Part shown: positions 31,040-64,000 of the stretch, one piece after another
Layout of the letters: each line of letters starts with the position of its first letter
Numbering within the stretch: position 1 is the stretch's first letter
Source of the DNA: Bdellovibrionales bacterium
GTDB lineage: Bacteria > Bdellovibrionota > Bdellovibrionia > Bdellovibrionales > UBA1609
Assembly (NCBI GenBank): GCA_965261545.1
Contig: CBDHDF010000006.1
Span: 160,001-224,000 of the forward strand
Direction: 5' to 3'
Length of the DNA stretch: 64,000 nucleotides
Notes under the pieces: generated by a model
What the model was told of the DNA's origin: nothing
The model's database searches: none
The model's input: the letters and a program-made list of their open reading frames with translations, nothing else
Program-made: the position numbers and the translations under genes

Positions 31040-31164
31040 AAGATCCTCCTCATTGCTAACCTTTTGAGTTGCAAGAGGGAGGGACTCTGTGAGCTTAGTA
31101 TCTATATCAGAAGAAGAGACTTCATTGTCTAGTATTTGAACACTCCCTGAAGATTGGTCACTTT

Positions 31165-31539: not shown

Positions 31540-31610
31540 AGGTCCTCCTCTGAAAAGTGGCCACTTTTCATTGGCGACGGTGGGGCATTTTAATTGTCAG
31601 CTAACAACCT

Positions 31611-38561: not shown

Positions 38562-38562
38562 A

Positions 38563-39966: not shown

Positions 39967-39971
39967 GGAGT

Positions 39972-42162: not shown

Positions 42163-42169
42163 GGTATTG

Positions 42170-43457: not shown

Positions 43458-43461
43458 AAAT

Positions 43462-45621: not shown

Positions 45622-45967
45622 GAAAAAATTTTAGGCTGTCATGAAGCGGAGAAAGATACAGGAGCGACTTAATTCTTCTCCTTTTTGGGCCCTGGATGGG
45701 GGGTGAAAACTACCCAGTTCATTTCCCCGAGATTTTGTTGTGTGCCTTTGAGAGTGAGAATAACAACTTGATGAACGGAAGCTGATGGGCTATAAATTAC
45801 ATGATTTACTTAAAAAAATCCACCTTATTGTAAGGGAAATCCAAAGAAAGGTCATTAATGGTATTATACAATATTTTGATTCTGATCGAAGTATTATGGA
45901 ATAGTTATATAAGCAAAAATAATACTGCGCGCCATAGAGAGACGTCGGAGAGACGGTGCCTTGCGTT

Positions 45968-46753: not shown

Positions 46754-46755
46754 AA

Positions 46756-47973
46756 ATGTTAGAAGTATCGAATCTCAGCAAATCTTATAAAATATCTCAT
46801 TCTCAATGGAAATATTTTGCACATTGGTTTGGATTCAAAAGTAACTCATTCTCAGAGAAGTGTGTGTTGAAAAATGTGAATTTTTCTATGCAAGCGGGGG
46901 AGGCTCTTGGGGTTATTGGCTGTAATGGGGCAGGAAAAAGTACACTTCTACAGATCATTGCTGGCACGATCTTTCCGTCGTCGGGTCACGTACATTATCA
47001 GGGGCATATCGCTGCGATTTTGGAGCTTGGAGTGGGATTTCATTCAGAGCTAACAGGTCGGCAGAACGCCTACCATGTGGCTTCTATGAATGGGTTCTCA
47101 GGTGCAGAGCTTCATAATGCTATCGAGCAGACTTTCGAATTTTCCGAGATTGGAGATTATTTTGATCAACCTGTACGTACATATTCCAGTGGTATGCAAA
47201 TGCGTGTTGCTTTTTCAGTGCTTACGGCGAGACGACCAGATGTTTTACTTGTTGATGAAGCATTTTCTGTAGGTGATGCTTATTTTCAGCATAAAAGCTT
47301 TGATCGGATTCGTGGGCTTCAAAAGGAGGGAACCTGTTTGATTTTGGTTTCCCATGACCGAAATGCAATTGCAAATATTTGCAACCGAGCTTTGCTTCTT
47401 GAAAACGGGAATGTGGCTATGGATGGGAAGCCAGAACAAGTGTTGGACTATTACAATGCAACACTTAGTGAAAGCTCAGTTCATACCATTCAAGCAAAGC
47501 CTCTTAAGGATGGAAATTTTCAAGTAAAATCGGGAACCGGAGAGGCCACACTGACAGAAATTCTTCTTTTTGATAGTTGTGGAAAAAACACTGAAATTCT
47601 TAAGGTGGGGGAAAAGGTTAAGTTGGAGTTGCGAGTGCGAGTTTTTGAGTCTGTTGAGACGTTGGTTTTGGGTTTTGGTATAAAAGATCGTATGGGACAG
47701 GTCTTGTACGGTACAAATACTTGGCATACCAAGCAAATTATTGATAACCCCAAGGTGGGAGACGAATTCATGTTTACCATTGAATTTGAAGCCAACTTTA
47801 ATGTGGGGAACTACTCAGTGCAAACAGCATTAACGGATAGCGAGACTCATTTACATGCCAATTATGAGTGGTTGGATTACGCTTTGGTGTTTGAAGTCAT
47901 CAATACGAACAAGCCATTCTTTACGGGGACGCAATGGAATGATTCAAAGATTGAAATTGAGAAGATCACATAA
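46756..47973 (+). CDS. wzt: O-antigen/glycan ABC exporter ATPase with Wzt C-terminal domain
   Basis: GCNGAGKST, YSSGMQMRVAFS, DEAFSVGD plus C-terminal extension. Confidence 0.92.
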   Translation: MLEVSNLSKSYKISHSQWKYFAHWFGFKSNSFSEKCVLKNVNFSMQAGEALGVIGCNGAGKSTLLQIIAGTIFPSSGHVHYQGHIAAILELGVGFHSELTGRQNAYHVASMNGFSGAELHNAIEQTFEFSEIGDYFDQPVRTYSSGMQMRVAFSVLTARRPDVLLVDEAFSVGDAYFQHKSFDRIRGLQKEGTCLILVSHDRNAIANICNRALLLENGNVAMDGKPEQVLDYYNATLSESSVHTIQAKPLKDGNFQVKSGTGEATLTEILLFDSCGKNTEILKVGEKVKLELRVRVFESVETLVLGFGIKDRMGQVLYGTNTWHTKQIIDNPKVGDEFMFTIEFEANFNVGNYSVQTALTDSETHLHANYEWLDYALVFEVINTNKPFFTGTQWNDSKIEIEKIT

Positions 47974-48029
47974 GGTTCACATGGGACTTAGTAGAAGCTT
48001 CGCTGCATTGAGATGGAGATTCAAATGAA

Positions 48030-49337
48030 ATGAGTAATATATGTGTGGTTGGTCTTGGCTATGTTGGTTTGACGCTGGCGGTGTATCTTGCTCGACAAGG
48101 TCTCCAGGTTCATGGTGTTGAGATATCCAATGAAATTTTGCAATCTCTCAAAAGGAAGAAGGCTCATTTTTATGAGGACCATTTTGACATCCATCTTGAA
48201 AAAGCCATAGACAATGGCCTTTTCACTTACGGTGATCAATACACTGAGAGCCCTGAAAAAACAGTTTATATTATCACTGTGGGGACACCCCTTGGTACGG
48301 ATGGCCTAGTCCATCTCACTTCATTGCAAACTGTCATCGACAACATTGCCAAGGAGCTAAAAGATGATGACATTATTGTTTTACGATCCACAGTCAAGCT
48401 TGGTACCACCCAAGGCATGATCAAAGAAGCCTTGGGTAAGACAGGAAAAACCTACTATCTCGGCTTTTGTCCTGAACGTACCTTAGAAGGTTCTGCTTTT
48501 AAAGAATTGTCGTCATTGCCACAGATTATTTCTGGCATCAATGATGATTCTCTTAAAGAGATTGAAATGTTTTTCAAATCAATTTTCAGGGAAACTGTGG
48601 CTATGAAATCTGTGGAAGAGGCTGAAATGGTGAAACTCCTCAATAACTCTGAACGAGACTTAATGTTTGCTGTTGGCAATGAAGTTGCGCTTATGTGCGA
48701 AGAAAAAGGGCTAGATGCCTATCGCATCATTCAGGCCGCCAACTATCAGTATCCTCGCTCAAATTTAAAAAAACCTGGTCCTGTGGGTGGGCCCTGTCTT
48801 GAGAAAGATCCTTATATCCTTACCGAAGGCTTTAAAAAGGCTTCATATCAGCCGTCTCTTTTTACGGCAGGGCGTAAGGTGAATGAAAGTATTATCCGTG
48901 GTGGTTTGAAACGTTTTTTGGAGCGCAAGGAAGTGCAAGGGAGCATTGTGCCGACGAAGGTTGCTGTATTAGGTTTTGCTTTCAAGGGGATTCCATCGAC
49001 GGGTGATGTCCGTGGCAGTCTTGTTTGTGATGTGGTCAACACGATTAAAAACTACTTTCCTTATGCAAAAATTATAGGACATGACTACTTGGCCACATCG
49101 TATGATATGCGCCGGGCGGGTGCCCTTGAGGGTCTCAACGACTTGAAAAGCGTGTTAAAAGATGCTGATATGGTGATTTTGCAAAATAACCATCCCTTCT
49201 ATAAGCGTGAGGACTGGGCAAATTTGCAACAACTCATGGGTAAAGGGGCGTGGATTTACGATTTTTGGAATCAGTTGGAGGGAGTTGAATTTTTAGATGG
49301 GAGGTTCTATCATGTTTTTGGTAGGGGGAAAGTGTGA
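48030..49337 (+). CDS. Nucleotide-sugar (UDP-Glc/ManNAc-type) dehydrogenase
   Basis: VVGLGYVG, TVGTP, RST, PER, GGPCLEKDP, GFAFKG. Confidence 0.9.
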   Translation: MSNICVVGLGYVGLTLAVYLARQGLQVHGVEISNEILQSLKRKKAHFYEDHFDIHLEKAIDNGLFTYGDQYTESPEKTVYIITVGTPLGTDGLVHLTSLQTVIDNIAKELKDDDIIVLRSTVKLGTTQGMIKEALGKTGKTYYLGFCPERTLEGSAFKELSSLPQIISGINDDSLKEIEMFFKSIFRETVAMKSVEEAEMVKLLNNSERDLMFAVGNEVALMCEEKGLDAYRIIQAANYQYPRSNLKKPGPVGGPCLEKDPYILTEGFKKASYQPSLFTAGRKVNESIIRGGLKRFLERKEVQGSIVPTKVAVLGFAFKGIPSTGDVRGSLVCDVVNTIKNYFPYAKIIGHDYLATSYDMRRAGALEGLNDLKSVLKDADMVILQNNHPFYKREDWANLQQLMGKGAWIYDFWNQLEGVEFLDGRFYHVFGRGKV

Positions 49338-50809
49338 AACATAAAGTCTTAGTTGATATCTCTCTTGCACATATAAGTTCTGGATTTTCTGGTATTCCAC
49401 AAGATGCAAGGTTGTTATTTGGTAATTTGATGAATTCACAGAGATTAGAGTTGGCGGGGCTCATTTATAGTTCTGGGGAGAATATTTTTTATCGCAAATA
49501 CAAAAACGATCTGGCAACAACCTCTGTATTTCTTGGGATTCATTTAAATGGTTATTCGAAGACCTCTGAGAATGGTATAGCTCAGAAGGTTTTTGCGAAG
49601 CTTTCTCCTAGACTCCACCGTTATGTGATGTCCTTCTTATATAGCCTGCCATATAAATTTACACTCAATTCTTTGGATATGGATGCTTTTGGGGATATGA
49701 TTTGGCGTAGCTTTTTTTCTTCAACTTTGGATGTGGCTTTGTCTAAGGAGTTATTCAAGAAAAAAATGTTCTGGTCTGGTATGTCTGCAGTTCGTATTTT
49801 AAATGGCGCTCTTGGAAAATTACCTATTTGCGAACTTGATAGCCGGGGTTTTGATTTTACTTTGCTTCAAGATGTTCGTGCTGTGAAACTCTCACATGAG
49901 ACGCAAAAAATAATTCGATATCATGATGCTTTGCCGGTCTTTGCCTCCGATACCTTTGGTAATGAACTCCATACACTGGGACATATTCATGCCATTAAAA
50001 AGTGTGCTGAAGACTCTATTTTTGTGTGTAATTCCACCAACTCGGTGAATGAACTATCTAGAATTTCTCAAAAAGCTGCCGATAAGGCCCATGTGATTCC
50101 TTGTTTGTTGCCTCCTATGGAAAGAAAAGACGTCACACGCAAGGTTCTGGAGAAAATCTGCCTGATTCGTCGCTCAAGCAGCACTCAGCCCACAAACCAA
50201 GAAACCGACATTCAAAAATGGTTGGGGCAGGGCGAAGATATTCCTCCATTTATCATGAGCCTCGCCACTATTGAGCCACGCAAGAATTATATTGGCTTGA
50301 TTGAGGCTTGGCTAAGACTGCGTTATGAAACAGGTAGGGATATCAAATTGATGATTGTTGGCCGCCCGGGTTGGCTATTTAAAAAAACGTTGAGAGTTAT
50401 GCGGCCACTTGTTAAATCTGGTGACCTCATGCACCTGGAAGGTGTGGCACAATTGGAGCTACCCTATCTTTATTCGGCTGCAAGCTGTTTTGTGTTTCCC
50501 AGTTTTTGTGAGGGTTTTGGTTTGCCACCCAACGAAGCGATGCAATGCGGCTGTCCGGTGACTGTATCTGATATCCCGGCCCATCGTTATTCGGTGGGTG
50601 ATGGGGCTCTTTATTTCAATCCCTACGATCAAAAGGATATGTCCCATAAAATGGGTTTGCTTATGGACAAGCAAAAAAATCAGACATTGATTGATGATTT
50701 TATTGAGAAGGGGTATTCCAATGTGAAGCGTTACTCTGGGGAGGCTGTGTTGCCACAGTGGGAAGGCTTGTTTGACCGGTTTAAAAAAGATAAAGTAGGT
50801 CTTCAGTGA
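49334..50809 (+). CDS. GT4 glycosyltransferase
   Basis: TIEPRKN, EGFGLPPNEAM. Confidence 0.88.
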   Translation: MKHKVLVDISLAHISSGFSGIPQDARLLFGNLMNSQRLELAGLIYSSGENIFYRKYKNDLATTSVFLGIHLNGYSKTSENGIAQKVFAKLSPRLHRYVMSFLYSLPYKFTLNSLDMDAFGDMIWRSFFSSTLDVALSKELFKKKMFWSGMSAVRILNGALGKLPICELDSRGFDFTLLQDVRAVKLSHETQKIIRYHDALPVFASDTFGNELHTLGHIHAIKKCAEDSIFVCNSTNSVNELSRISQKAADKAHVIPCLLPPMERKDVTRKVLEKICLIRRSSSTQPTNQETDIQKWLGQGEDIPPFIMSLATIEPRKNYIGLIEAWLRLRYETGRDIKLMIVGRPGWLFKKTLRVMRPLVKSGDLMHLEGVAQLELPYLYSAASCFVFPSFCEGFGLPPNEAMQCGCPVTVSDIPAHRYSVGDGALYFNPYDQKDMSHKMGLLMDKQKNQTLIDDFIEKGYSNVKRYSGEAVLPQWEGLFDRFKKDKVGLQ

Positions 50810-51786
50810 CGGCATTAAAAATTCTTGTCACGGGGGGGGCTGGTGCCATTGGTTACCAACTCGCAAGGGCTTTGGCCGAGCGTGGTGACGAGGTTATTAT
50901 TGCAGATAATTACATCCGTAGTCAAAGGGACCAAGAGTTGGTGGGCCTTTTGTCAAGGCCCAATGTGTATGAGTTGAACATCGATCTGAGCAATGATGGA
51001 CTTTACGATCAGTTGCCCAGTGATGTGGACTACATCTATCATTTGTGTGCCTTTAACGGCACACAGAATTTTTATGAACATTCCTTTGCCGTGTTGACTC
51101 ATTCCACTTTGCCGACCATCCATTTGTTACGAAAGTATGGAAAGAGCCAAAGACTGAAGCGCTTTATTTATGCAGGAAGCTCAGAAGCCTATGCTTGCAG
51201 TGTTTCTTGCTTCAATTGGGAGATTCCCACCGATGAAACCGTCCCCTTGGGCATTGAAGATCCACTGAACCCGCGTTGGTCTTATGGTGGCTCAAAAATG
51301 CATGGTGAATTGGCCGCTGTGGCTGCCAACAACGAGTTAGGTACGCCTTTTACTATTCTTCGTTATCACAATATTTACGGCCCGCGTATGGGTGACAAAC
51401 ATGTCATCCCAGATTTTATAGTGCGTGCTAAGCAGGGTGTCTATGCCCTTTATGGCTATGAAGATACCCGTTCCTTTCTTTATGTCTCTGATGCTGTGAA
51501 TGCCACCATCGCATGTGCAGAAAGTCAGAAAACCCTTGGCTCCATTGTTCACCTTGGCAGCGATCAAGAGATAAATATACTTGAACTTGGAAAATTGATG
51601 ATGAAAATCATGGGAAAAAATGACGAAATCACTCTCCACCCTTCGCCCCGCGGAAGTGTCAAAAGAAGAGCTCCCAATGTGGGAAAATTAAAAAGTGTTA
51701 TCAGATTTGAACCCAAAATCAGCCTTGAGGAGGGTTTAAAAAAAACAATGGAATTTTATGCACCAGAACTACTGGATCAGAGCTAA
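50806..51786 (+). CDS. NAD-dependent epimerase/dehydratase (extended SDR)
   Basis: TGGAGAIG, YGGSK, NIYGPR. Confidence 0.9.
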   Translation: MTALKILVTGGAGAIGYQLARALAERGDEVIIADNYIRSQRDQELVGLLSRPNVYELNIDLSNDGLYDQLPSDVDYIYHLCAFNGTQNFYEHSFAVLTHSTLPTIHLLRKYGKSQRLKRFIYAGSSEAYACSVSCFNWEIPTDETVPLGIEDPLNPRWSYGGSKMHGELAAVAANNELGTPFTILRYHNIYGPRMGDKHVIPDFIVRAKQGVYALYGYEDTRSFLYVSDAVNATIACAESQKTLGSIVHLGSDQEINILELGKLMMKIMGKNDEITLHPSPRGSVKRRAPNVGKLKSVIRFEPKISLEEGLKKTMEFYAPELLDQS

Positions 51787-51792
51787 AGGGGT

Positions 51793-52914
51793 GTGATGAA
51801 AATTGGACTTTCAACATCCTCCATTGAGAGGGAGCGAAACCATGGAGTCCTTGATGGGATGGGTCATTACACGATTCAATTGATGAAAAATTTGAAGTCC
51901 ATGAATCATGAAGTTGAGGGATTTGCATTTCCTCGGGTTTTTAAAAAAATAAATTTTCAAAACAGTTCTTCTTTTCCTAAATCATTTCCTGAGCATATGC
52001 TTTGGTCTTATTTTCAATTTAAAATGCCTTATGATTTAGGTAGTGATGTAGATATTTTCCACTGTACGGATTACAAGATGATTCCTGTGACCTGTCCTGT
52101 GGTTGCCACTATTTGGGATGCCATTCCCTTTGTACACCCTGAGTGGTTCCCAGGATATCTTAGGAGTCGAATTAGTTCTATTTTTCTCAAGCGCAGTGCA
52201 GAATACGCCAATAGGGTGATAGCGGTTTCCGAACATGCTGCAAAGGACCTCGTCAAATATTTTGGGATTTGCGAAGATCGTATAGAAATCATACCTTGGT
52301 GTATAAGTGACAAATGGCTTTCAAAATATAGTCAAGGGGAGATTGAATCTGTTTGCTCAAGATACAATATTTCTACGGATTATATTTTAACAGTGGGAAC
52401 ACTTCAGCCTAGAAAAAACTTTGGAAGAGTCATTGATGCATTTGTGGCATTACCAGATAAATTGCGTACTAATTTAAAGTTGTTGATCGTCGGAAAATAT
52501 GGCTGGATGAGTGAGGATCTTGTCAAAAAAATTCATGCTTATACAAATTCAGGTGATGTTTTGTGGTTGAAAAATGTAGAAAATGATTGTGATTTACAAT
52601 CATTGTATCAAGGGGCTAGGGCTTTTGTCTTTCCCTCTCTCTACGAAGGCTTTGGAATGCCTGTGTTGGAAGCCTTTGCAAGTGGAGTTCCAGTGATTAC
52701 GAGTAACACCACGTCTATTCCCGAAGTCTGTGGTGATGCGGCTTTACAAGTAGACCCATCTTCCACCAAACAAATTACGGATGCCATTGACTTCATATTG
52801 AAAGATGGGGCTGCCTCCAGAGATTTCGTAAAAAATGGTTATAAGCGGTTAAAGCTTTTCAACGAATATGACATGATGGCTAAAATTGTTGGTCTCTACA
52901 AGAAATTACTGTAG
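51793..52914 (+). CDS. GT4 glycosyltransferase (mannosyltransferase-like)
   Basis: VGTLQPRKN, EGFGMPVLEA. Confidence 0.9.
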   Translation: MMKIGLSTSSIERERNHGVLDGMGHYTIQLMKNLKSMNHEVEGFAFPRVFKKINFQNSSSFPKSFPEHMLWSYFQFKMPYDLGSDVDIFHCTDYKMIPVTCPVVATIWDAIPFVHPEWFPGYLRSRISSIFLKRSAEYANRVIAVSEHAAKDLVKYFGICEDRIEIIPWCISDKWLSKYSQGEIESVCSRYNISTDYILTVGTLQPRKNFGRVIDAFVALPDKLRTNLKLLIVGKYGWMSEDLVKKIHAYTNSGDVLWLKNVENDCDLQSLYQGARAFVFPSLYEGFGMPVLEAFASGVPVITSNTTSIPEVCGDAALQVDPSSTKQITDAIDFILKDGAASRDFVKNGYKRLKLFNEYDMMAKIVGLYKKLL

Positions 52915-53006: not shown

Positions 53007-55166
53007 TTATTCTTTTTTCATTAGCTGCATATCGATAAATCCAAGTCCAAGTACTCTTGAATCATTACTGATTCCTATAGATGTTGGAGAGAGTGGGTTT
53101 TTAATTTCAAATCTAATTTTTATTTTTTTGTGATTTCCTTCATGAATCTGAAAAATAAATTCTTTGGGATTTTGTTCCTGATATTCGATAGTGATTTTAT
53201 CTACAAATTTATTATTTATATAGACATTAGATGATTGAATTTTATTTTTATGATTAACGAATGCAGATAGATTAAATTTAATAGCCTTTGCATTACAATT
53301 TTTTTTTGGACTGATATTTATTATGGTATAATCATGGTTACTCCATCTTCCCCAATGTTCTATGTGAGAAAGATTTTTGAAATAATAATATTTCTTATGA
53401 TTGTATTTAGAAAAAGATATTTTTTGATTACAAGGAACAGTGTTGTATGTAATTTGATTCCACGATGATGAATTATTTAGAGGCCCATTAATTTTATACG
53501 ATATTATTGGTAGTACTTTTCCTTGACTCAAAACAGTGTATCTTGGATTCAAGTAATCGTAATAATGAAAGAGACGTTCGCGATTCTTTGGTCTAATTTT
53601 TGCAAGAAGATTAATTCCTTTATAGTCATTTGTCAAGTTGAGTGCATCTGCAATTGTCTTAGGAATATCCGAAAGTTGAGCGTGGTAAGGGTCAATAGTG
53701 AGATTGCCTGATTTCCTAAAGGGTTTGATTAATAGTGTTGATGCTGCACGGGAATATGGAGGTGTTATTTTTTCTTTATTCTTCATGTTTTTTGGTGTGT
53801 GAAATGATCCGTGGTCAGAAGAGATAATAATCATTGTGTTGTCATAAGCGCCGCTTTCTTTGATATTGTTTATAGTTTTAAGAATTTGTTTTATGGCGCA
53901 AAGCCCCTCCATAGATTTATTTTTTAAGGAGTAGAAAGATTCGCCTTTTTCCACTAATTTATTTCTAGTATTACAATTTTCATCTAGAATAGTAGGGCTA
54001 TGTGTGAGAATAGAGTGATGAAACTTTAGAGTTGGTTTATAATCTTTTATAATAAAAAATTTCTCTGTAGCTAAGTATTTTAATGATTTGAGTGGTCCAC
54101 TTTTATCTCTTCCTGCTGAAAGAGTTTGGTGTTTCATATTATATTTTATAAACCATTTTTCATTGTTGTATATTTCTGGTTTCATTGCATCTGGAACAGA
54201 TCGAAAGATTGAATAATTTAAGAGTTTAAAATATGAAGAAATATTTTTTTCGTTAATATTCTGAAGCATTACAAAGTTATTTTTTGGAAAAAGATTTTGT
54301 GCCATTGAAGATGGTGGTTCCGTGTAAGTAACTTCAAAACCTTCTTCGTCAAGTCGAATTGCTATGCTGTTGTCTCCACTTTTTTTATAAAATTCTTTAA
54401 GTTTTATTTCATTCTTGTAAATATTACTTGAAAATATTGCTGGCATCGATGCTACAGTGGTAGGAAAATTAGAGGATGCGTCGGAAAACCATATAAAGCC
54501 ATCTAATTTTTCTTTGATATTTTCATTGAGAATATACTCAAAGAGATCTGTTTGATATTCATCTAAAATAATAAAAAGTATGTTTGGATTTTTATTTGAG
54601 TATATGAAAAGTTTTTTTAGATCTGATATCTCTGCTTTGTTTTCATTATAATTATTTTTGTAGGATGATATATTAAAAACACTCACTGAAATACTAATTA
54701 AAAGGATAGATAGCAATAAGGTCAATTGTTTTTTATTTTTTTTGAATAGATTTATCCCTGCATACATCATTAGAAAAATAGTTATTTGAAAAAAATTAAG
54801 TAAGCCAAATCGATTGATTTCAATGGCGCCTCGACCATCAAATATTCCATAAGTTCCTACTAAAATAGTTGAATTGATCCAGATTGAGATCGAAGATGCA
54901 AAGAGTATAAAAATGAATTGTTGAATAATAAATTTTCTAAATAATAAAAAAATGAACAATAGAGCTATGTTAAGAATGAAAATAAAATAAAGCATATATT
55001 TTATAGAAATTTTTAGGATGGACCATGCTGATATACCAAAGAATTCTTCTGGATTGTTCGCCATAATATCAAATGGTGTTGCAATAAATAAAACCCATGT
55101 CGATAATAAGAAACATAAATTCGCTAATAAAATTTTATTAATAATATCTGTCTTTTCTTTAAACAT
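53007..55166 (-). CDS. Membrane-anchored alkaline-phosphatase-superfamily (sulfatase-like/LtaS-like) protein
   Basis: About 5 N-terminal TMs; NILFIILDEY, FPTT, THSP, YDNTMIIISSDHG; very AT-rich. Confidence 0.8.
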   Translation of the reverse strand: MFKEKTDIINKILLANLCFLLSTWVLFIATPFDIMANNPEEFFGISAWSILKISIKYMLYFIFILNIALLFIFLLFRKFIIQQFIFILFASSISIWINSTILVGTYGIFDGRGAIEINRFGLLNFFQITIFLMMYAGINLFKKNKKQLTLLLSILLISISVSVFNISSYKNNYNENKAEISDLKKLFIYSNKNPNILFIILDEYQTDLFEYILNENIKEKLDGFIWFSDASSNFPTTVASMPAIFSSNIYKNEIKLKEFYKKSGDNSIAIRLDEEGFEVTYTEPPSSMAQNLFPKNNFVMLQNINEKNISSYFKLLNYSIFRSVPDAMKPEIYNNEKWFIKYNMKHQTLSAGRDKSGPLKSLKYLATEKFFIIKDYKPTLKFHHSILTHSPTILDENCNTRNKLVEKGESFYSLKNKSMEGLCAIKQILKTINNIKESGAYDNTMIIISSDHGSFHTPKNMKNKEKITPPYSRAASTLLIKPFRKSGNLTIDPYHAQLSDIPKTIADALNLTNDYKGINLLAKIRPKNRERLFHYYDYLNPRYTVLSQGKVLPIISYKINGPLNNSSSWNQITYNTVPCNQKISFSKYNHKKYYYFKNLSHIEHWGRWSNHDYTIINISPKKNCNAKAIKFNLSAFVNHKNKIQSSNVYINNKFVDKITIEYQEQNPKEFIFQIHEGNHKKIKIRFEIKNPLSPTSIGISNDSRVLGLGFIDMQLMKKE

Positions 55167-55239
55167 TTTTTTAATCCTCGCTCATAGAATTGGTTGTTTC
55201 TCATTTTTTATTGGTTATTTTTATCGGATGTATTAAAAG

Positions 55240-56394
55240 TTATGGAAAAGACGATTCTTTATATATATTATTTATAAAATTTTCTACAAATTGTCGATCT
55301 GAGTCTCCTAAATTAAAAACATATTGAGATGTAACTTCTTTATTCAAATTTATTTTTATGGAATCACAGCGTTCAATGCAATCTGATATTGGATTTTTTC
55401 TATTCCAAACCACACCTATTTTATTTCGAATGGAAACTTCAAGGGGAACAAGATCAATGGACAAATAATCGGGATTGTTCGCTTTCTTTGGTATATCACA
55501 AAATATGATTGGCTTTTGTAAACCAAAGGCATATTCAAGAGCCGCGCCAGACCAATCACTTATCATAATGTCTGAATAATGAAAACTATCATTGTTGGAA
55601 ACATTGTCTTCATAAGAGAAAAGTGAGTGCTCTTCATATAGTGCAATGATTTTGTCCACATTGGAGGCGGCATGTTTTATAGTTTGTGGATGGGGCCTTA
55701 ATGTTACATAATAGCTTTGTTTAAGCAAATCTTCAATTAGCTGCTTGGCAAGGCCAGATTCAATAAGGCCATTTGGGCCCCATGAGGGTGCTATAAGAAT
55801 ATGTTTTGTGTTTGATATGTTCTTTTTTGTTCCATATTTTTCTTGATCTTGTTGGGTAATGGTATCCAATCGTGAATATCCGTGTTCAAAGATATTTTTT
55901 GCCGGCAACTCATATTTTACCTCCATGGCTCGAATTTCTTTTACATGATGTGGTCCTGAGCAACAAATCGTATCGAAATGGTCGAAGGCGCCTTTGCGGT
56001 ACGCCATATGTAAGCTCACTAATGAATGCTGCACATAAATATAATGAACAGGGTAGTGGGAGCGCTTGACCTGATATTGATGTAAATCTGGTGTTGTCAT
56101 AATCATAAAATCAGTATCAATATTTTGAAATATCCAGTTGAGTATAAAGCCAGTGCCAACGTAAAATTTGTGATAGTTTGCGTTTTCAAGCATAAGTCCT
56201 GGGTCATCGGGGGATGAGCTGATATAACAAATTGGAGATACATTTGTCGCAAGCAGTGTACGTACTAAACCTTCAAGGTGTGGCCAATACTTGACTCCCT
56301 CACTATAAAAGGTGATGCGGCGCTTCTTTTTTGGGAGACTCATGAAGTTTATCACAGAGAAAATTCCTCTTATTGTGTTCAAAAATCTAAGCAT
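55240..56394 (-). CDS. CDP-glycerol glycerophosphotransferase (TagF-like) family protein
   Basis: QHS, GYSRLD, ILIAPSWG, LRPHP, ISDWSGAALEY. Confidence 0.85.
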   Translation of the reverse strand: MLRFLNTIRGIFSVINFMSLPKKKRRITFYSEGVKYWPHLEGLVRTLLATNVSPICYISSSPDDPGLMLENANYHKFYVGTGFILNWIFQNIDTDFMIMTTPDLHQYQVKRSHYPVHYIYVQHSLVSLHMAYRKGAFDHFDTICCSGPHHVKEIRAMEVKYELPAKNIFEHGYSRLDTITQQDQEKYGTKKNISNTKHILIAPSWGPNGLIESGLAKQLIEDLLKQSYYVTLRPHPQTIKHAASNVDKIIALYEEHSLFSYEDNVSNNDSFHYSDIMISDWSGAALEYAFGLQKPIIFCDIPKKANNPDYLSIDLVPLEVSIRNKIGVVWNRKNPISDCIERCDSIKINLNKEVTSQYVFNLGDSDRQFVENFINNIYKESSFP

Positions 56395-57190
56395 ATGGAT
56401 TCCATATTTTTTTAAGTTGTTGCTGTTGTTCCAATTTTTCGTAAAGTGTAAGATCTTCGATGGTATCGACCTCTAGCCAGCCATGGGTCACGGGCACCCC
56501 TTTAATTTTCCATCCGGCGTCGATGAGAAGTTGAAGAAAGCTCGTTAAATAAATTTTGTGGAAAGGGGTACCATCATAATACTTATTGCGATCAAGTTGA
56601 TCGTAAAAATAGATGAAATCATCAATTTTGTGTGCAGCTACTTTCAATAATCCGGTATATTGTCCGTCAATTTCATCATAGGTTTTAGGCTTCTTTCCAA
56701 GCTTTCTGATGAAGCCATTTTCATCGATCTTCAAGGTTTCGGCATCATTAAGTGGGTTTTCATTTCGTAGGCTCCATAAATCATACCATCCATAATCAAT
56801 CATAACAGAAAGATCAGCGTCATCTTTTATAACAGCTTCAAGATTTTTTCTTTCATACACAATATCACCGTAGGAAATGAGCAGATCATCAGATGAACCT
56901 TTCATAAAGGTACGCGCGAGGAACAAGCTTTCCACCATATTAGTGCTATCATAAAGATCATTTTTGAAGATTGTAAATTCAAATTTTTCTATTTTTCCAA
57001 GTTTTTCAATCTTCTCAGACAGGTAACCCGTTACAATGGCGATGGCATCAATTTCAGATCTTTGCAAAAGATCAATTTGATGGTGAAGCAACGGCTTGCC
57101 CAAGAGTGGGACGAGGCACTTTGGCCTGTCATCGGTCATGGGGCGCAAGCGTGTTCCACAGCCAGCAGCAAGAATAATACATCTTGTCAT
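56387..57190 (-). CDS. Cytidylyltransferase (LicC/Cj1416-like)
   Basis: ILAAGCGTRLRP..DRPKC, YGDI, DAETL, GWLEVDT; context. Confidence 0.85.
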   Translation of the reverse strand: MTRCIILAAGCGTRLRPMTDDRPKCLVPLLGKPLLHHQIDLLQRSEIDAIAIVTGYLSEKIEKLGKIEKFEFTIFKNDLYDSTNMVESLFLARTFMKGSSDDLLISYGDIVYERKNLEAVIKDDADLSVMIDYGWYDLWSLRNENPLNDAETLKIDENGFIRKLGKKPKTYDEIDGQYTGLLKVAAHKIDDFIYFYDQLDRNKYYDGTPFHKIYLTSFLQLLIDAGWKIKGVPVTHGWLEVDTIEDLTLYEKLEQQQQLKKIWNPYA

Positions 57191-57191
57191 T

Positions 57192-57860
57192 TTAAAATAT
57201 CCTTTTTAATAAATCTAAATCACTTTGAATGAAAGGGGTTTCCCGTTCTGGATGCCACATAATGGCTGTCACCTTTTCTTCTTTATGGGTAAAAGCTTCG
57301 ATGCGGTCATCCTTATCGCAGGCGAGGGCTTCTAAGGGCGTTGCGAGCATATCGGGTGGGATCCCATAATTGTGGTAGCTATTCACTATTTCAGGGAGGT
57401 TAAAGGCCAACTTATGGTCACGGTGAATGATTGAATGTCGATCCGAACTGGCGTGACCCTTAATTTTTACTATGTCACCACCATAAAAAAGATTAATCAA
57501 TTGCATTCCTCGACAAACTCCTAAAACGGGAATTTTTGCTTTTATTGCATATCTGAGCAACTGATGTTCATAGCTATCTCTTTTAGGAAAAAAATCTGAA
57601 AGAAGATCATCTTGGTTATTACCTTGCAATGTCTTTGCTGTAATGGAATTGCCGCCACTTAAGATCAAGCCATCTAAAGAAAGATTGGATAGTTGTGTTT
57701 TGACAAATCTGGGTTCGATATTGGGAAGTGGAAGGGGCTGTAAATCCAAGTGAAGCAATAGATCAGACCATCTTTGGTCAAGACAATCCAGAACTTCTTC
57801 ATATCGAGGGTGCTTTATAACTTTTTGAGTGATGCCGATACATTTTTTAAACATTCGCAA
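57192..57860 (-). CDS. Class I glutamine amidotransferase-like gamma-glutamyl hydrolase (Cj1417-like)
   Basis: LDQRW, LSGGN, GVCRGMQ, VNSYH, MWHPER. Confidence 0.85.
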   Translation of the reverse strand: MRMFKKCIGITQKVIKHPRYEEVLDCLDQRWSDLLLHLDLQPLPLPNIEPRFVKTQLSNLSLDGLILSGGNSITAKTLQGNNQDDLLSDFFPKRDSYEHQLLRYAIKAKIPVLGVCRGMQLINLFYGGDIVKIKGHASSDRHSIIHRDHKLAFNLPEIVNSYHNYGIPPDMLATPLEALACDKDDRIEAFTHKEEKVTAIMWHPERETPFIQSDLDLLKRIF

Positions 57861-60825
57861 TCCTATGATTTAGGCAGTCGAGTAAAATCGTACCTTGTTT
57901 GATATTTTCATAAATCTTATCACCTGTACCGATGGCCGCAGGCAAAGATATCTCTGCGCATCGAATGGCCATATGAGAGTTAGCACCACCATATTTTGTG
58001 ATAAGGCCGGCAATTTCATACCTGAACAGCCAATCAAAACCGGGGTCTGCATTTGGAATTAATACAATTTTATTGTTCAATTTATTTTTGTCACTCTTTT
58101 CGATTGTAATGGCTTCGGCGATGACACATTCATGGGTGATAAAATTGGGAATAGAGTGTATTTGCTCAAAGCCATAGAAGTCAGATTCTGATTTGATGAA
58201 AGAGGGTAATTTTACAAGTTGCTTATTTCTATCTTCTTTCATACGCCTGTGAACAAGTTTTTTGACAGCAGCCTTGTCTGTATGACCTGTTCTAAGATCA
58301 GCAATATCTGCCCATTTCATATACCCTACTTCCTTGCGTGATAATCCAAGATCTTGGTGACCATAGGCAATCAAAGTATCCAATGATAAACTTAGATTGC
58401 GTGTAAATATGAATTTACTTTTTTCCCTCGCTTGTATGGCCGAGCGTAGATAGTTAATAAATTCACTTGTTGTGATCGGGCTTTCCAATTCATCCAGTAT
58501 TTTTTGTATGGAAGATAGTTCTTCTTTGTGAAATCGAAACACTTTGACAGTATTTTTAGAATTTTTTTTTAAGGTTGCTCGTTGTCCAAAATAGAATTTT
58601 GTGTTTTCCCAATATGCCTTTTGGTTCACATCATAGGTCCCAGGACGTAAGTGACCGTATTTTTTAATCAGATATTTGAGTGACATTTTTTTATTATTCA
58701 TATCATTTTCAAAATCACTGGTAATAGTGTTAAAACTAGACTGAAATTGAAGCATACGCTCTTTGGAGATTATATTTTCTTCAACAAGGCTTTTTAAGAA
58801 AGTGATAGCAATAAAGCCAGAGCGAGCTGCATGGGCAAAGCTCAATGTTCCATAGTTCTTGCAATCTTCAATCAGAGTGTAGGCTTTTTCCAGTAATGGC
58901 AGTTTTTTTTCTCTTAGGTTATTAAAACGTTCTTCAAGTTTTGTAAGATTTTTTATATCTTGGTCCAGTCGTTGCAATGCATGAGCCGTTAGCACTTTTA
59001 GTGAGGTTTCGAGCAAGGTGATATCTTGCTCTGTTACATTTTGGCCCGCAAAGCGTTTGGTCGCATGGTACTTAAAATTGGGAATCCAAATTGTGAACGC
59101 CACTTCAAATTCAATTTTGTCGTGTAAATGTGGATTCTTCTTTAAGATATTCAAGTAGGCATTTATAATTCGTGTGGCACTGTCATTGGGTAAATCAGAA
59201 GGAGTGAGTGAATTGAGGCTTGCTCTGCAATCAATATAGGGCTGAGCACAAAAGCCATAAACAAGTGGAAAGGGGCGGAGATCTCTATATCCAAACTCGG
59301 CGCGCTGCGTTCCCCATATTTCATCTGTAATGATGTGGCGGTATAGGCTGAGTGCGAGTGGGTTGGGACGTGCTCCAATAATCTCGGCGGGATTCCAATC
59401 TGCCATATTGGAAAATAGCGTATAATCTCCAATAATTTTTAGACTTGATGGCTGCCATTTTCGAAAGTTATCACAGGAGGCATCAAGATAATCTGTTAAT
59501 GTTTTATCATCAACATTATAGCGGTCATGTTCAACAATGATGGGGCGCACTTGAAATGTATGAACATGCCCGAACTGATCAACAGCAAATTCTATATCTA
59601 GTTTGTTGAAGCCCAATAAGAGTTGCAGCTCTTTTGCGGCTCTGACGACCGTGGCTAGTCGTGCATCTATGTGAGAGATCATTTCTTTGTGGGAGTGGCT
59701 GATAATAATTGTTCGCAGATCATTTTGACGACCAGAAGTCACCATTTCTGTGGAACCCGACTTATCGTCATAGTTTATAATGTAGTATGGCATTCCAGTG
59801 TACAGATCGCAGGTAAAAATAACTCCAGAAATAATTGTATTTTGAATAAAGGGCTGGATGAGAACCTGGCTGTTATCAGTAAGTAAATTATAAGAAGCAA
59901 ACACCTTGTCAATGGCTTTTTCGAGGGAGTCATGATCGCGACCATCAATGTTCAAAATACTCTCAAAAGCACCAGCATTTGAGATTTGCCAACCATCCTC
60001 CTGTGCAGAGCTACTTCGCACAATCAAAGCTCGGTCTCCAAATTTTTCTTTTATTGCTGCGAAAGATTTTAACTTCGCATTTTGCCAATGGAGCCAGCTA
60101 CAGACCACCTGATCAGAGATAATGCTATGCTTGATGTGTGGTCGAATTCGATTCAGTGTTTCCGCTTTTGTACCGAGAACAAAATGAATCAAGTCATTTG
60201 GCTCATTCATTTCGGCCCAGTCGCCACAAACATCAAAATATGTTATACCAAAGCCTTCATCTTTGAGAAGCTCAATCAGTTCAAGAAAGCTTGAGCCAAG
60301 CCCATTGACTCCTTTCGAATGGATGAAACTTATCGCCTCACTGGTGAACTTGATAAGGCCGGTGTATTCCACATGGCCATGGGAATTGGTGATGAAGGTT
60401 TCGGCTCGGTCCATATCGGTTTGTGGTCGCTTTGCGAAGCGATGTTGCCATTGGCTATCAATGGCGATGACGACATCTGAACTGATTTTTAAAAATTGTT
60501 CTATTGTCTTTTGGTGAAAGACCGTATCGGCATACATGGCAATGACAGGCTCTGATGGCTTCCAAGAAGCTTGCATAAAAGAATGCAAAGCACTTTCAGT
60601 TTCCCAGTTGAGTGCTAAGGAAAAATTGACATTTGGGTACTTTTGAACAATTTCATCGTATTGATAACCAACAATAACGGAGATATGACTCTCCGGACAG
60701 GATTGGTGTAATGTATTGATTTGCCACTCCAATAGGCTTTGTCCATTGGCTGTTGGCCAAACACTGCATGGGACCCTTCCGTCATGACGCATCCCGGCAG
60801 CTAGTATTAAAAATTGCATAACCAT
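57847..60825 (-). CDS. L-glutamine kinase-like PEP-utilising enzyme (Cj1418-like) with N-terminal nucleotidyltransferase-like domain
   Basis: TKAETL, VRSSSAQED, SNAGAFES, DIEF, QVRP, MADWNPAEIIG, YGHLRPGTYD, ADPGFDWLF, GGANSHMAIR (phospho-His). Confidence 0.85.
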   Translation of the reverse strand: MVMQFLILAAGMRHDGRVPCSVWPTANGQSLLEWQINTLHQSCPESHISVIVGYQYDEIVQKYPNVNFSLALNWETESALHSFMQASWKPSEPVIAMYADTVFHQKTIEQFLKISSDVVIAIDSQWQHRFAKRPQTDMDRAETFITNSHGHVEYTGLIKFTSEAISFIHSKGVNGLGSSFLELIELLKDEGFGITYFDVCGDWAEMNEPNDLIHFVLGTKAETLNRIRPHIKHSIISDQVVCSWLHWQNAKLKSFAAIKEKFGDRALIVRSSSAQEDGWQISNAGAFESILNIDGRDHDSLEKAIDKVFASYNLLTDNSQVLIQPFIQNTIISGVIFTCDLYTGMPYYIINYDDKSGSTEMVTSGRQNDLRTIIISHSHKEMISHIDARLATVVRAAKELQLLLGFNKLDIEFAVDQFGHVHTFQVRPIIVEHDRYNVDDKTLTDYLDASCDNFRKWQPSSLKIIGDYTLFSNMADWNPAEIIGARPNPLALSLYRHIITDEIWGTQRAEFGYRDLRPFPLVYGFCAQPYIDCRASLNSLTPSDLPNDSATRIINAYLNILKKNPHLHDKIEFEVAFTIWIPNFKYHATKRFAGQNVTEQDITLLETSLKVLTAHALQRLDQDIKNLTKLEERFNNLREKKLPLLEKAYTLIEDCKNYGTLSFAHAARSGFIAITFLKSLVEENIISKERMLQFQSSFNTITSDFENDMNNKKMSLKYLIKKYGHLRPGTYDVNQKAYWENTKFYFGQRATLKKNSKNTVKVFRFHKEELSSIQKILDELESPITTSEFINYLRSAIQAREKSKFIFTRNLSLSLDTLIAYGHQDLGLSRKEVGYMKWADIADLRTGHTDKAAVKKLVHRRMKEDRNKQLVKLPSFIKSESDFYGFEQIHSIPNFITHECVIAEAITIEKSDKNKLNNKIVLIPNADPGFDWLFRYEIAGLITKYGGANSHMAIRCAEISLPAAIGTGDKIYENIKQGTILLDCLNHRIANV

Positions 60826-60854
60826 ATACCTGAGATTGAAAAAGCTATTTTTGG

Positions 60855-61112
60855 CTAGGAACTATTACCTTGCATTTTTGTGTCTTCAGAGGGGCTCTTT
60901 TTTTGGGGTTTCTTTTTAGAAAATCCAAAGATGGAGGTGATTTTGTACCAAAATGTCTTTATGGTGATACCGATGGCCACAAGTAAACCGATAATAACAC
61001 TCATCAGCGCACTTCCAGAACCAGGGTCAATATAAGCATGTGCATTTGAACTGAAAGAAAAAACTAATGTTGCAATAAGAATGACTAAGGTCGGAGATGT
61101 AGCTTGTTTCAT
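60855..61112 (-). CDS. Small membrane protein with AYIDPGSGS motif
   Basis: Signal-like helix ending AHA, then YIDPGSGS, a TM helix and a basic tail; GAGAGG RBS. Confidence 0.75.
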   Translation of the reverse strand: MKQATSPTLVILIATLVFSFSSNAHAYIDPGSGSALMSVIIGLLVAIGITIKTFWYKITSIFGFSKKKPQKKSPSEDTKMQGNSS

Positions 61113-61234
61113 GCAGTGGATTCCTCTCAATTATTGTGATGTTCGTTCTGTAGCGGACTTCATACTTGGAAGTCAACTCCAATATTATCTCAGTCTCTAT
61201 GCTGATGAGTGTCTAATTTGTCAGATTTGGAGGA

Positions 61235-62383
61235 GTGATGCTCCCTCGAGTTCCTTTTTTACAGCTATTTTTTCTTCTTCTAGGTGTACTGATGGGTTTG
61301 CTTCCTCTTAGTGTTTGGGCAGAAATAAGTGACATTGAATTGACCTTAGATCAGGTTAACGTTTATGCAAATGAACAGGTGAGAGATCGCTTTCCTTATT
61401 CGGGGCTTGCCCAATTTTATAATGGTATTAGCCTTTTTGTTGTTACTACCGAAGGTGTTCGAGAACTTGATTCAGAGGTCCTAATACTTGAAGAAAACCA
61501 GTGGCTGGCCATTGTCGGACACTACAAGGTCCTAGTATTTCAGAAACCTGAATTAAGCGTGATGCTGGATGGTGAGCAAATTCAGGCGAGTCTAGCTAAG
61601 CAACCTTTAGATGAGGTTTTAATTAATGCACATTTGATATTAAAGTCTGAGCTTAAAGTCCTAGACCCTACACTTGATCAACTAAGATATGCGTACTTGT
61701 GGACGCCGTTGAGAGTACTTTGTCTTGGTATTGACAAGCTTTTGTTGTGGCTCAACTCTCTTCACCCCTTCGGTTGGGGAATAACTATTGTGCTGCTTTC
61801 CATTTTGTTTAAAATATTCATTTTACCGGGCAATATATTATTGATGAATGCTCAGCGAAAAATATCGTATATCCAGGCAAGACTCGCACCTGATCTAGAT
61901 ATGATCAAAGCTAACTATTCTAGCGAGGAAGCCCATGAAATGTTTATGGCAGCTCATAAGCGATATGGCGTGACCCCTTTTTTTACACTCAAGTCTTTGC
62001 CACTGACCTTGCTTTCTGTTCCATTTTCAATTGCTATTTTTAATGTACTTGGTGAGATAGACCAAATTGAGGGACATTCGTTTTTGTGGATCAATGATCT
62101 TGTGCGGCCAGATTCAATTTACGACCTTGGGTTTCAAGTGTCATTTCTTGGTAGTTCTCTCAATTTCCTGCCTATTTTAATGACACTACTTACAATCTTT
62201 GCTGCGATTTTACATCAGAACAAGATTGTCAGTGTAAAAGAAAATCAAAAACAAAAAAAACACTTATACCTGATGGCACTTGGTTTGTTTGTTCTGTTTT
62301 ATCCATTCCCTGCCGCAATGGTATTGTACTGGACTTGCACTAATCTTTGGCAGTTAATACAGCATAGGATTATAAAAATATGA
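61235..62383 (+). CDS. YidC/Oxa1-family insertase paralog
   Basis: GWGITIVLLS, SFLWINDLVRPD, LNFLPILM, FPAAMVLYWTCTNL; GGAGG RBS. Confidence 0.85.
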   Translation: MMLPRVPFLQLFFLLLGVLMGLLPLSVWAEISDIELTLDQVNVYANEQVRDRFPYSGLAQFYNGISLFVVTTEGVRELDSEVLILEENQWLAIVGHYKVLVFQKPELSVMLDGEQIQASLAKQPLDEVLINAHLILKSELKVLDPTLDQLRYAYLWTPLRVLCLGIDKLLLWLNSLHPFGWGITIVLLSILFKIFILPGNILLMNAQRKISYIQARLAPDLDMIKANYSSEEAHEMFMAAHKRYGVTPFFTLKSLPLTLLSVPFSIAIFNVLGEIDQIEGHSFLWINDLVRPDSIYDLGFQVSFLGSSLNFLPILMTLLTIFAAILHQNKIVSVKENQKQKKHLYLMALGLFVLFYPFPAAMVLYWTCTNLWQLIQHRIIKI

Positions 62384-63419: not shown

Positions 63420-64000
63420 ATGAAAAAATCTCTCCCTCCCCTTTGCTTAACCCTTGATAACGCTTTTAAAGCATTTTTTAAGCACGACCAGGGCTTACTC
63501 AAGCCTTTGTTGCAGGATTTTCTTCCCTTGCCACCCGGTTGTCGGGTGGAGCATGTGCAGTTGTTAGATGCCGAAGAAAACTCTTCAGAGGCAAGCAAAC
63601 CTTCGGGAAAGACCTTCATCTTGGACATGAAGCTTCGCATTTCTCGACAATTGTCCAGTGGGGAGTGGGTCGAAAATGAAACTGTGAATGTGGAAATGCA
63701 AACCGTCTCCCAAAGAGACTTCACAAATCGCCTTCTTGCCTATGCGGGACGGGTCTACTCCAACCAAGTGAAAGAAGGAGAAAAATACGAGAAATTAAAA
63801 ACTGTTTACTCCCTTGTTTTCAGTACTGTGGATCTTCCTGAGCTATGCAAGGACAACGATTATTACCACACATGCAGCATGAGGCAGGATAGATACCCTC
63901 ATTTGAGACTCACCGATGGTATGCAATTTGTCATTGTAGAATTGAACAAGTTCATTGGCAGATTAGACAGTCTTGTTGACCAGCGTGAAGCGTGGTGCTA
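63420..64000 (+). CDS. Rpn-family recombination-promoting nuclease / PD-(D/E)XK putative transposase, truncated by the window edge
   Basis: Hand translation: MKKSLPPLCLTLDNAFKAFF...ILDMK...NVEMQ...RLLAYAGRVYSNQVKEGEKYEKLKTVY...VELNKF. Absent from the ORF track because it has no stop in the window. Confidence 0.85.
   Translation, partial: MKKSLPPLCLTLDNAFKAFFKHDQGLLKPLLQDFLPLPPGCRVEHVQLLDAEENSSEASKPSGKTFILDMKLRISRQLSSGEWVENETVNVEMQTVSQRDFTNRLLAYAGRVYSNQVKEGEKYEKLKTVYSLVFSTVDLPELCKDNDYYHTCSMRQDRYPHLRLTDGMQFVIVELNKFIGRLDSLVDQREAWC

Follow-up and report, generated by a model that had tools for sequence, protein, structure and literature searches.

A phosphoramidate gene cassette linked to a tyrosine microprotein, a TagF-like enzyme and a YidC paralog: a proposed carrier relay across the bacterial envelope

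How could an activated phosphoramidate group made in the cytoplasm reach the cell surface, if the genes for its synthesis are joined not to those completing the pathway known from Campylobacter jejuni but to genes of a TagF-like transferase and membrane proteins? This question is raised by a gene run in a 64,000-nucleotide stretch of DNA (the window) from a Bdellovibrionales bacterium of the lineage UBA1609 (GenBank assembly GCA_965261545.1, contig CBDHDF010000006.1, positions 160,001–224,000), in which three genes resembling those for O-methyl phosphoramidate (MeOPN) synthesis stand between the gene of a small membrane protein (microprotein) and those of a TagF-family protein and a membrane enzyme of the alkaline phosphatase (AlkP) superfamily, with a divergent paralog of the insertase gene yidC. 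The conserved modular architecture to which these genes belong is real and well supported: module loci span several phyla, and one microprotein family with an invariant tyrosine recurs in them. We consider it probable, judging by conserved residues and gene partners, that this microprotein would act as a carrier, its tyrosine relaying the group across the envelope.

The locus and the linkage of its genes

The genes of the locus are listed below (window coordinates; aa, amino acids).

60855-61112, minus strand: microprotein, 85 aa; likeliest start ATG 61112 behind a GAGAGGA element
57847-60825, minus strand: Cj1418-like L-glutamine kinase (phosphoenolpyruvate-utilising), 992 aa; PRK05849, motif check
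57192-57860, minus strand: Cj1417-like class I glutamine amidotransferase / C26 hydrolase, 222 aa; Peptidase_C26, NF045546 best match
56387-57190, minus strand: Cj1416-like nucleotidyltransferase (LicC/PntC type), 267 aa; NTP_transferase
55240-56394, minus strand: TagF-family protein, 384 aa; PF04464
53007-55166, minus strand: NoeB-like membrane AlkP-superfamily enzyme, 719 aa; Sulfatase + DUF7024
61235-62383, plus strand, divergent: YidC paralog, 382 aa; 60KD_IMP

All seven open reading frames (ORFs) of the co-directional run and its divergent yidC paralog, as given in a preliminary description of the window, were confirmed. The kinase and amidotransferase genes overlap by 14 bp, the amidotransferase and nucleotidyltransferase genes are separated by 1 bp, and the nucleotidyltransferase and TagF genes overlap by 8 bp. 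A promoter scan stayed at chance level.

Linkage was followed with profiles built from the loci in 160 TagF-anchored loci, of which 80 were the top-ranked among 418 loci from genomes and 80 the top-ranked among at least 575 from metagenomes; this sample is biased to close relatives and contains near-duplicates (133 labelled rows gave 121 at 90% identity). All 80 genome loci together had the microprotein in 62, the AlkP enzyme in 54 and YidC in 48 cases, while in the 40 well-flanked ones (at least 6 kb on both sides) the respective numbers were 33, 31 and 27, with all three present in 24. In evenly drawn genome samples the microprotein was found in 43 of 301 genomes of the same phylum and in 19 of 401 of Pseudomonadota, against 33 of the 40 well-flanked TagF loci; therefore, the grouping is not due to chance. 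The wiring of these genes to each other claimed in the preliminary description was thus borne out across phyla, also by fusions: the YidC domain was fused in 11 of 12 long TagF homologs, and locus L023 had both microprotein-TagF and YidC-AlkP fusions. Fusions of YidC with TagF also exist in Bacillota, a phylum outside the set of loci covered. For the YidC paralog the claim held in part, since it is linked and fused but optional (27 of 40). The microprotein was commoner than the TagF-like gene. A TagF-like query gave no match among plasmids and one locus among viral contigs; the IMG/VR viral contig L242 carries a piece of a TagF-like gene beside a microprotein gene.

The microprotein consists of a predicted signal peptide ending in AHA, followed by Y27-I-D-P-G-S-G-S, a single transmembrane (TM) helix and a basic tail, the cleavage site being placed by reading the A-x-A pattern and the Tyr27 codon lying at 61032-61034; according to the predicted topology, only about eight residues are exposed ahead of the TM helix. 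It matched no Pfam or NCBIfam family, and its Atlas matches were unnamed clusters. Among 168 distinct homologs, profile-aligned without a residue filter, the first mature residue (Tyr+1) was invariant (167/167 non-gap, no Phe), with Ala or Gly at -1 in 165, Pro+4 in 166, Asp+3 in 157, and Ser or Thr at +6 in 149 and at +8 in 137. The family motif is a signal peptide, Y-x-D/G-P-G and a TM helix, Tyr+1 being its only invariant nucleophile. The nine YxGPG variants coincided exactly with the loci that have a sulfotransferase and an aryl-sulfate sulfotransferase (ASST), described below, and there the Ser/Thr residues at +6 and +8 were mostly lost. The Ser/Thr of GSGS as an obligatory carrier was weakened as a candidate by their absence in several members, including most YxGPG proteins. 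A MifM-like leader role of the small gene was rejected: in this locus the gene and yidC point in opposite directions, and in most loci it stands ahead of the donor genes. In topology the microprotein resembles M13 procoat (Ala-x-Ala before Tyr, TM helix, basic tail), and those few members that lack a signal peptide are reminiscent of Pf3 coat; both coat proteins are classic YidC substrates. In locus L018 (7307-8731) a microprotein sequence is in frame with the N-terminus of a 474-aa C-methyltransferase, either as a fusion or by a missing stop.

Donor cassettes, loaders and unloaders

The kinase belongs to PRK05849 (896 bits, cut-off 501), a family which presumably includes Cj1418, and has PPDK_N and PEP-utilizers domains with a conserved phospho-His motif of the swivel domain (His952 in GGANSH). 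The Cj1418-like assignment was upheld at the family level, while a degenerate NTP-transferase-like domain at the N-terminus (approximately residues 1-215; 25% identity to the NTP-transferase family, E 6e-11) had been overlooked. This long form was present in 51 of 53 module-locus kinases versus 3 of 20 control loci. The amidotransferase has an intact triad (Cys116, His203, Glu205), and its best NCBIfam match is NF045546, gamma-glutamyl-CDP-amidate hydrolase, with 131.9 bits, under the cut-off of 250; the amidotransferase of a cluster bearing adenosine phosphosulfate (APS) kinase reached only 106.9 bits, and the cut-off is thus narrow. A function as gamma-glutamyl-CDP-amidate hydrolase is proposed for the protein by this similarity. 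The nucleotidyltransferase has an intact GxGTR..K motif and LicC 1jyk as the best PDB match (E 7e-16), with 6pd1 also among the matches.

The next enzyme of the Campylobacter pathway, Cj1415, is an APS-kinase-like protein. The preliminary description had reported no cj1415 in the window; a profile search extended this to the whole source genome (96.8% complete), in which no match was found, the profile being positive in 11 of 14 control genomes. The same profile gave no match in 169 module loci and was positive in control clusters. In 20 kinase-anchored control loci of the evenly drawn samples, which left out the module loci G335 (centre of one sample) and G187, APS kinase was present in 13 and the microprotein in one; therefore, kinase loci more commonly follow the Campylobacter-like plan, and those of the module type, which lack Cj1415, form a distinct minority. 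The cassette also has no methyltransferase gene, with one weak methyltransferase match elsewhere in the genome. Two observations concern the kinase cassette in other bacteria. A formyltransferase-like protein of 290-490 aa (L057:14439-15842 and 40 other loci), which may N-acylate the amidate, was accompanied by the kinase gene in 34 of its 41 loci. In an Agrobacterium vitis plasmid (L236:8938-14027) a short kinase, the amidotransferase and the nucleotidyltransferase are followed by LysE and a CDP-alcohol phosphatidyltransferase, with TauD and tRNA-ligase-like genes also beside them; this is perhaps a third CDP-amidate outlet, leading to a secreted small molecule.

The donor cassette proved to be interchangeable. 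The 160 TagF-anchored loci contained the kinase in 66 cases, a lone S-adenosylmethionine (SAM) methyltransferase in 34, PepM in 11 (a cytidylyltransferase-PepM protein with Ppd and Fe-ADH) and the phosphonate uptake gene PhnD in 10 (PhnCDE type), and no locus held two of these four types. In two loci of the same phylum, ATP-sulfurylase-like and pyruvate-kinase-like genes took the donor place. On the TagF tree, obtained by a quick search with the labelled loci only, the donor type switched at least 23 times. Since the donors are mutually exclusive and switch so often, the downstream module is generic. The phosphoramidate (P-N) surface route suggested for the locus was supported by the lack of Cj1415 and the linked TagF, with the correction that the delivery module is not confined to P-N donors. 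In six loci (L073, L147, L155, L170, L171, L181) the sequence of a PhnC-like ABC ATPase is fused to a further TagF-like gene, which adjoins an ATP-sulfurylase-like gene and usually phnDE; this suggests salvage and activation of imported phosphonates.

A loader of one of three unrelated types was present near the microprotein in 48 of 49 microprotein-anchored loci. The own-phylum set (the 29 best-scoring loci other than that of the source genome) included 23 of the NoeA type, five of the TagF type and one with neither. All 20 Pseudomonadota loci had a loader: NoeA in seven, TagF in two, a 3'-phosphoadenosine-5'-phosphosulfate (PAPS) sulfotransferase with ASST in nine, and a PAPS sulfotransferase with an AlkP enzyme in two. 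The NoeA-type loader is an adjacent kinase-methyltransferase of 460-490 aa, assigned to the NoeA family by 35% identity (E ~1e-74), and an AlkP gene with the same catalytic set was found within ~7 kb in 13 of 19 widened NoeA loci, several of them on short contigs. PDB searches for NoeA and for the lone methyltransferase gave weak generic matches only. A 71-aa ORF of the microprotein family was found between nodL and noeA in Sinorhizobium meliloti 1021 (pSymA; E 4e-19), in a second S. meliloti strain and in Rhizobium sp. T136 (L238:3748-3963, L239:2748-2963, L240:3751-3966), annotated as hypothetical or not annotated; NoeB in these loci belongs to the AlkP family. According to PMC9758233, NoeA combines a protein-kinase-like part with a SAM methyltransferase; a role as a peptide-Tyr modifier is plausible.

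ASST in the nine sulfate loci was recognized by Pfam in five and by a profile built from those five in the other four. These loci (L270-L273, L275, L277, L279-L281; wider L283-L288, L294-L296) combine the YxGPG microprotein, ASST and PAPS sulfotransferase. ASSTs use aryl sulfate (phenolic) donors (PMC13426309), and sulfotyrosine would be a donor of this kind. The sulfate loci also carry a 125-aa membrane protein, fused to the sulfotransferase in two of them; its identity as a minimal Oxa1-like insertase was not supported (hhalign probability 0.6%, no significant Pfam match, unnamed Atlas cluster). Two hybrid loci (L274/L292 and L278/L293) combine a YIDPNAG microprotein and a PAPS sulfotransferase with a membrane AlkP enzyme of the Thr type that may be an AlkP-fold sulfuryl transferase.

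The TagF-like protein of the window, the only TagF-family protein of its genome, consists of the catalytic domain only (PF04464, 51 bits), with His123 and His235 invariant among 60 aligned homologs and TarL 8va1 as the only PDB relative in a profile search (E 1e-6). It is proposed to load the microprotein. A tandem pair of TagF-like domains occurs in a 733-aa protein (P0021). The AlkP enzyme, proposed as the extracytoplasmic unloader, has approximately five N-terminal helices, a catalytic domain and a C-terminal DUF7024. Its catalytic set is Asp202, Thr237, His389, Asp451 and His452; in 87 homologs the nucleophile was Thr in 77 and Ser in 10, and Asp202, His389, Asp451 and His452 were conserved in 84, 79, 87 and 86, respectively. 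The same residue set is present in S. meliloti NoeB. Foldseek with the model (pLDDT 84) ranked MCR-1 (9nww) first, followed by PbgA, sulfatases and LtaS at similar E-values; therefore, the fold alone cannot separate a transferase from a hydrolase. The YidC paralog (60KD_IMP, PF02096, 86 bits; model pLDDT 93) matched E. coli YidC 6al2 (E 4e-13) and also B. halodurans YidC, and has the five-TM core fold with the cytoplasmic hairpin and a short periplasmic beta domain. Its Lys193 (at least 90% conserved) falls in the alignment column of the groove Arg of the housekeeping protein, and we assume it to occupy the position of that Arg and its role; the correspondence of the conserved TagF-like, AlkP and YidC residues to those of characterised enzymes is likewise our assumption. 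The source genome has a second, housekeeping YidC, and the cassette paralog is proposed as an insertase dedicated to the loaded microprotein.

A tyrosine carrier relay and its alternatives

In the relay that we propose, the kinase, the nucleotidyltransferase and the amidotransferase would, by homology to the Campylobacter pathway, produce Gln-phosphate, gamma-Glu-CDP-amidate and then CDP-NH2, and without Cj1415 the product would stay at the level of CDP-amidate. The cytoplasmic TagF-like enzyme would load the Tyr+1 phenol with P(O)(O-)NH2 and release CMP; the YidC paralog would insert the loaded hairpin, bringing the charged Tyr to the outer face, where cleavage by signal peptidase would leave it as the N-terminus. 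Each microprotein copy would be used once or cycle via the YidC groove. Finally, Thr237 of the AlkP enzyme would attack the aryl ester, an ester of this kind being a good leaving group, and hand the group over to a surface glycan, probably the one exported by the neighbouring Wzm/Wzt, giving non-methylated phosphoramidate.

A tyrosine ester would be the simplest carrier, because three unrelated loaders and two unrelated types of unloader share one partner with a fixed Tyr; the donors of the loaders are all cytoplasmic (CDP-X, ATP plus SAM, and PAPS). Of the two roles that had been suggested for the small protein, the carrier is favored by the invariant Tyr and the three loaders, while that of the final acceptor is less favored. 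The extension of the relay to a general class has a somewhat better than even chance: a microprotein with an N-terminal Tyr would ferry anionic groups by insertion, sometimes with its own YidC, and loaders and unloaders would be interchangeable. The proposed loaders are TagF-like enzymes for phosphoramidate, phosphonate and methylphosphate, NoeA for methylphosphate and PAPS sulfotransferase for sulfate, and the proposed unloaders are either NoeB-like AlkP enzymes or ASST.

Several points weigh against this carrier relay. The 40 well-flanked loci include seven without a detected microprotein (L024, L044, L074, L097, L098, L099 and L103, the last with a divergent candidate), nine without AlkP and 13 without YidC, and the closest relative, L024 (60% TagF identity), has only the kinase, amidotransferase, NTP transferase and TagF. 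On plasmids of Vibrio alfacsensis (L232) and Pseudohalocynthiibacter (L233) the cassette with the long kinase is accompanied by a divergent PF04464 gene; microprotein, YidC and AlkP all went undetected in these two loci. The microprotein profile was built from Tyr-bearing sequences, with a possible bias against other residues, and the invariance of Tyr could reflect a signal-peptidase or binding constraint or the use of a free N-terminal amine. The likeness to the Campylobacter enzymes was established through family profiles, not by direct alignment, with the amidotransferase under the NCBIfam cut-off. A single-use carrier of 70-85 residues per transferred group would be costly. The support is comparative-genomic, the transfer steps and the P-N intermediate being deduced from it. 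In genome G090 the TagF plus PepM cassette (L021) and the microprotein (L209/L316) are on separate contigs; therefore, loci lacking the microprotein may use one encoded elsewhere.

The alternatives to the tyrosine relay differ in what they leave to the microprotein. It would be a structural subunit if the TagF-like enzyme loaded P-NH2 on a membrane lipid from which the AlkP enzyme took it, with YidC scrambling the lipid or helping in assembly; this is unlikely. Such a lipid carrier gains support from MCR-1, PbgA and LtaS, structurally nearest to the AlkP enzyme, and from the OpgB-like domain order of the latter, with a weak NF003000 match, these relatives and OpgB being lipid-donor enzymes, and also from the loci without microprotein. 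It leaves unexplained, however, the sharing of one microprotein by three unrelated loaders and two unrelated unloaders, of which one takes aryl donors, as well as a Tyr that is invariant and never replaced by Phe.

That the pathway ends with the microprotein itself, as a modified peptide of the membrane or surface or as a signal, and that AlkP or ASST removes, edits or extends its group, appears quite improbable. A strongly conserved mature N-terminus, a protein-kinase-like loader suited to a peptide product and AlkP-fold hydrolases among the structural and sequence matches of the AlkP enzyme would all be in line with it, but the exposed segment is very short, the loci are often placed within glycan or export clusters and ASST is a transferase; a Thr nucleophile combined with N-terminal TM helices is, moreover, the pattern of transferases.

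Very little probability is given to the same relay with another carrying atom, either the alpha-amine of Tyr+1, which is N-terminal after cleavage, or the frequent Ser/Thr at +6 and +8: these Ser/Thr are missing in several members, including most YxGPG proteins, the amine is freed only when export has already taken it away from the cytoplasmic donors, and ASST uses aryl donors. An ordinary MeOPN pathway completed elsewhere in the genome, with the other genes as chance neighbours, is largely refuted, since neither the source genome nor the 169 module loci have an APS kinase detectable by a profile that works on the controls and since linkage is tight and includes fusions, even though 13 of 20 control loci had this gene, it could be missing from the incomplete assembly, and APS kinases, perhaps for sulfate assimilation, are encoded away from the module in five of five other genomes that carry it.

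Genome setting, significance and known systems

The locus adjoins a convergent gene cluster.

37659-52914, plus strand: glycan cluster, convergent neighbour; Pfam/NCBIfam scan from 43342 on, 37659-43457 by eye

It includes methyltransferase-, radical-SAM- and GT2-like ORFs recognized by inspection, as well as a DUF7024 membrane protein, Wzm, Wzt, an NDP-sugar dehydrogenase, an epimerase and two GT4, and is a candidate source of the acceptor glycan from its position only. The DUF7024 protein (759 aa, multi-TM, 43342-45621) has this domain at the C-terminus in common with the AlkP enzyme, and the two may act on one glycan. The 4.3 Mb source genome gave no match in searches for PepM, NoeA, the formyltransferase-like partner and MdoG; with MdoG missing, an E. 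coli-type periplasmic glucan was rejected as the acceptor. The cassette is AT-rich (GC 30-39% over 52-60 kb versus 37-46% over the first 42 kb of the window). A search of 18 same-family genomes gave no close relative of the TagF-like gene, which suggests a horizontal gain. The genome is rich in mobile elements: the window contains three near-identical 553-aa transposase-like genes (2207-3868, 13520-15181, 31791-33452), more transposase-like ORFs recognized by eye at ~28-34.6 kb (28043-34591) and an Rpn-family PD-(D/E)XK gene at its end (63420-63998).

If the carrier model holds, this previously undescribed and apparently widespread architecture would export activated groups via a protein insertase and a tyrosine ester, dispensing with lipid carriers and MBOAT channels alike. 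It would provide a biochemical function for the nodulation gene products NoeA and NoeB of S. meliloti, with the 71-aa gene overlooked in the same operon, and a natural donor for one class of ASSTs, whose physiological roles are poorly understood according to PMC13426309. It would also bear on how surface glycans of bacteria other than Campylobacter come to carry phosphoramidate, phosphonate or methylphosphate; the non-methylated phosphoramidate is, independently of this module, a reported constituent of lipopolysaccharides of Xanthomonas and Shewanella (PMC3907429, PMC3210612). All three questions, the role of NoeA/NoeB, the ASST donor and the non-Campylobacter surface modification, can be tested in harmless culturable bacteria; among culturable strains, Pseudomonas brenneri DSM 15294 and P. 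japonica DSM 22348 carry the module in its P-N form and Marinicella litoralis KMM 3900 with the lone methyltransferase.

The statement of the preliminary description that no characterised system has this composition agreed with full-text literature searches, in which neither the module nor the motif was found described, with most subscription papers outside their coverage; the available sections of PMC8942020, PMC13721041 and PMC13390465 do not describe the module either. The nearest prior notice of a NoeA-type neighbourhood is PMC9758233, which reports the kinase plus methyltransferase next to an AlkP-fold gene and, in 65% of 816 neighbourhoods, a conserved hypothetical gene for ~65 aa; this paper assigns no function to the small gene and guesses at cytoplasmic Nod-factor decoration or effector roles. 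The nodL-noeA-noeB loci of S. meliloti share with our locus a microprotein family member and a NoeB of the AlkP type, but the loader is NoeA instead of TagF and no YidC paralog was seen in them. Legionella Lani_1193-1195 is likened to these loci, Lani_1193 by its size and position.

Among enzymes related to single components, EptA/MCR-1, LtaS and OpgB (MdoB) have the same N-terminal TM helices, AlkP fold, Thr nucleophile and Asp/His metal set, and the OpgB model also has a DUF7024-like C-terminus. These enzymes take head groups from phospholipids, while the cassette brings its own donor pathway and a peptide partner for the enzyme, and no MdoG was found in the genome; this gene context would argue for a peptide rather than a phospholipid as the donor to the AlkP enzyme. 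The TagF/TarL polymerases share the PF04464 fold, an expected CDP-activated donor and the two-His pattern, which we take to map to TagF residues. The protein of the window differs in having the catalytic domain only, in its remote relation to TarL and in a donor type that varies by locus; the gene clusters that recurred next to TagF-like genes, other donor cassettes among them, included no CDP-glycerol genes.

In common with the C. jejuni MeOPN pathway (Cj1418, Cj1416, Cj1417, Cj1415, Cj1421/22; PMC6429109, PMC3907429 and the Borg preprint bioRxiv 2024.11.05.622173) the locus has genes of a kinase, a nucleotidyltransferase and a putative Cj1417-type amidotransferase side by side, all three with their motifs preserved, and CDP-amidate as the predicted product. 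It differs in the lack of Cj1415 and of a methyltransferase, in a kinase longer by ~200 aa and in the TagF-like, microprotein, YidC and AlkP genes present instead of Cj1421/22, the final step being predicted as extracytoplasmic and the group as non-methylated. The closest functional parallel is provided by DltX and PatA, described as Tyr acyl shuttles in PMC12148441: in DltX-DltB-DltD and PatA-PatB a group travels via the invariant Tyr of a membrane microprotein or motif to a Ser/Thr enzyme outside the cytoplasm, which attaches it to an envelope polymer. Their cargo is, however, acyl, their partners are MBOAT and SGNH proteins and their C-terminal FXYXXF is loaded through the MBOAT, whereas here the cargo would be phosphoryl or sulfuryl, the Tyr is the predicted first mature residue, the loaders are soluble and cytoplasmic and the cluster encodes an insertase; the cassette has no MBOAT, no SGNH partner and no C-terminal FXYXXF, its motif being the N-terminal Y-x-D/G-P-G. 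By these comparisons, the module lies outside both the MeOPN pathway, for want of Cj1415, and the MBOAT-SGNH shuttles, and would work most like a phosphoryl or sulfuryl DltX combined with an insertase.

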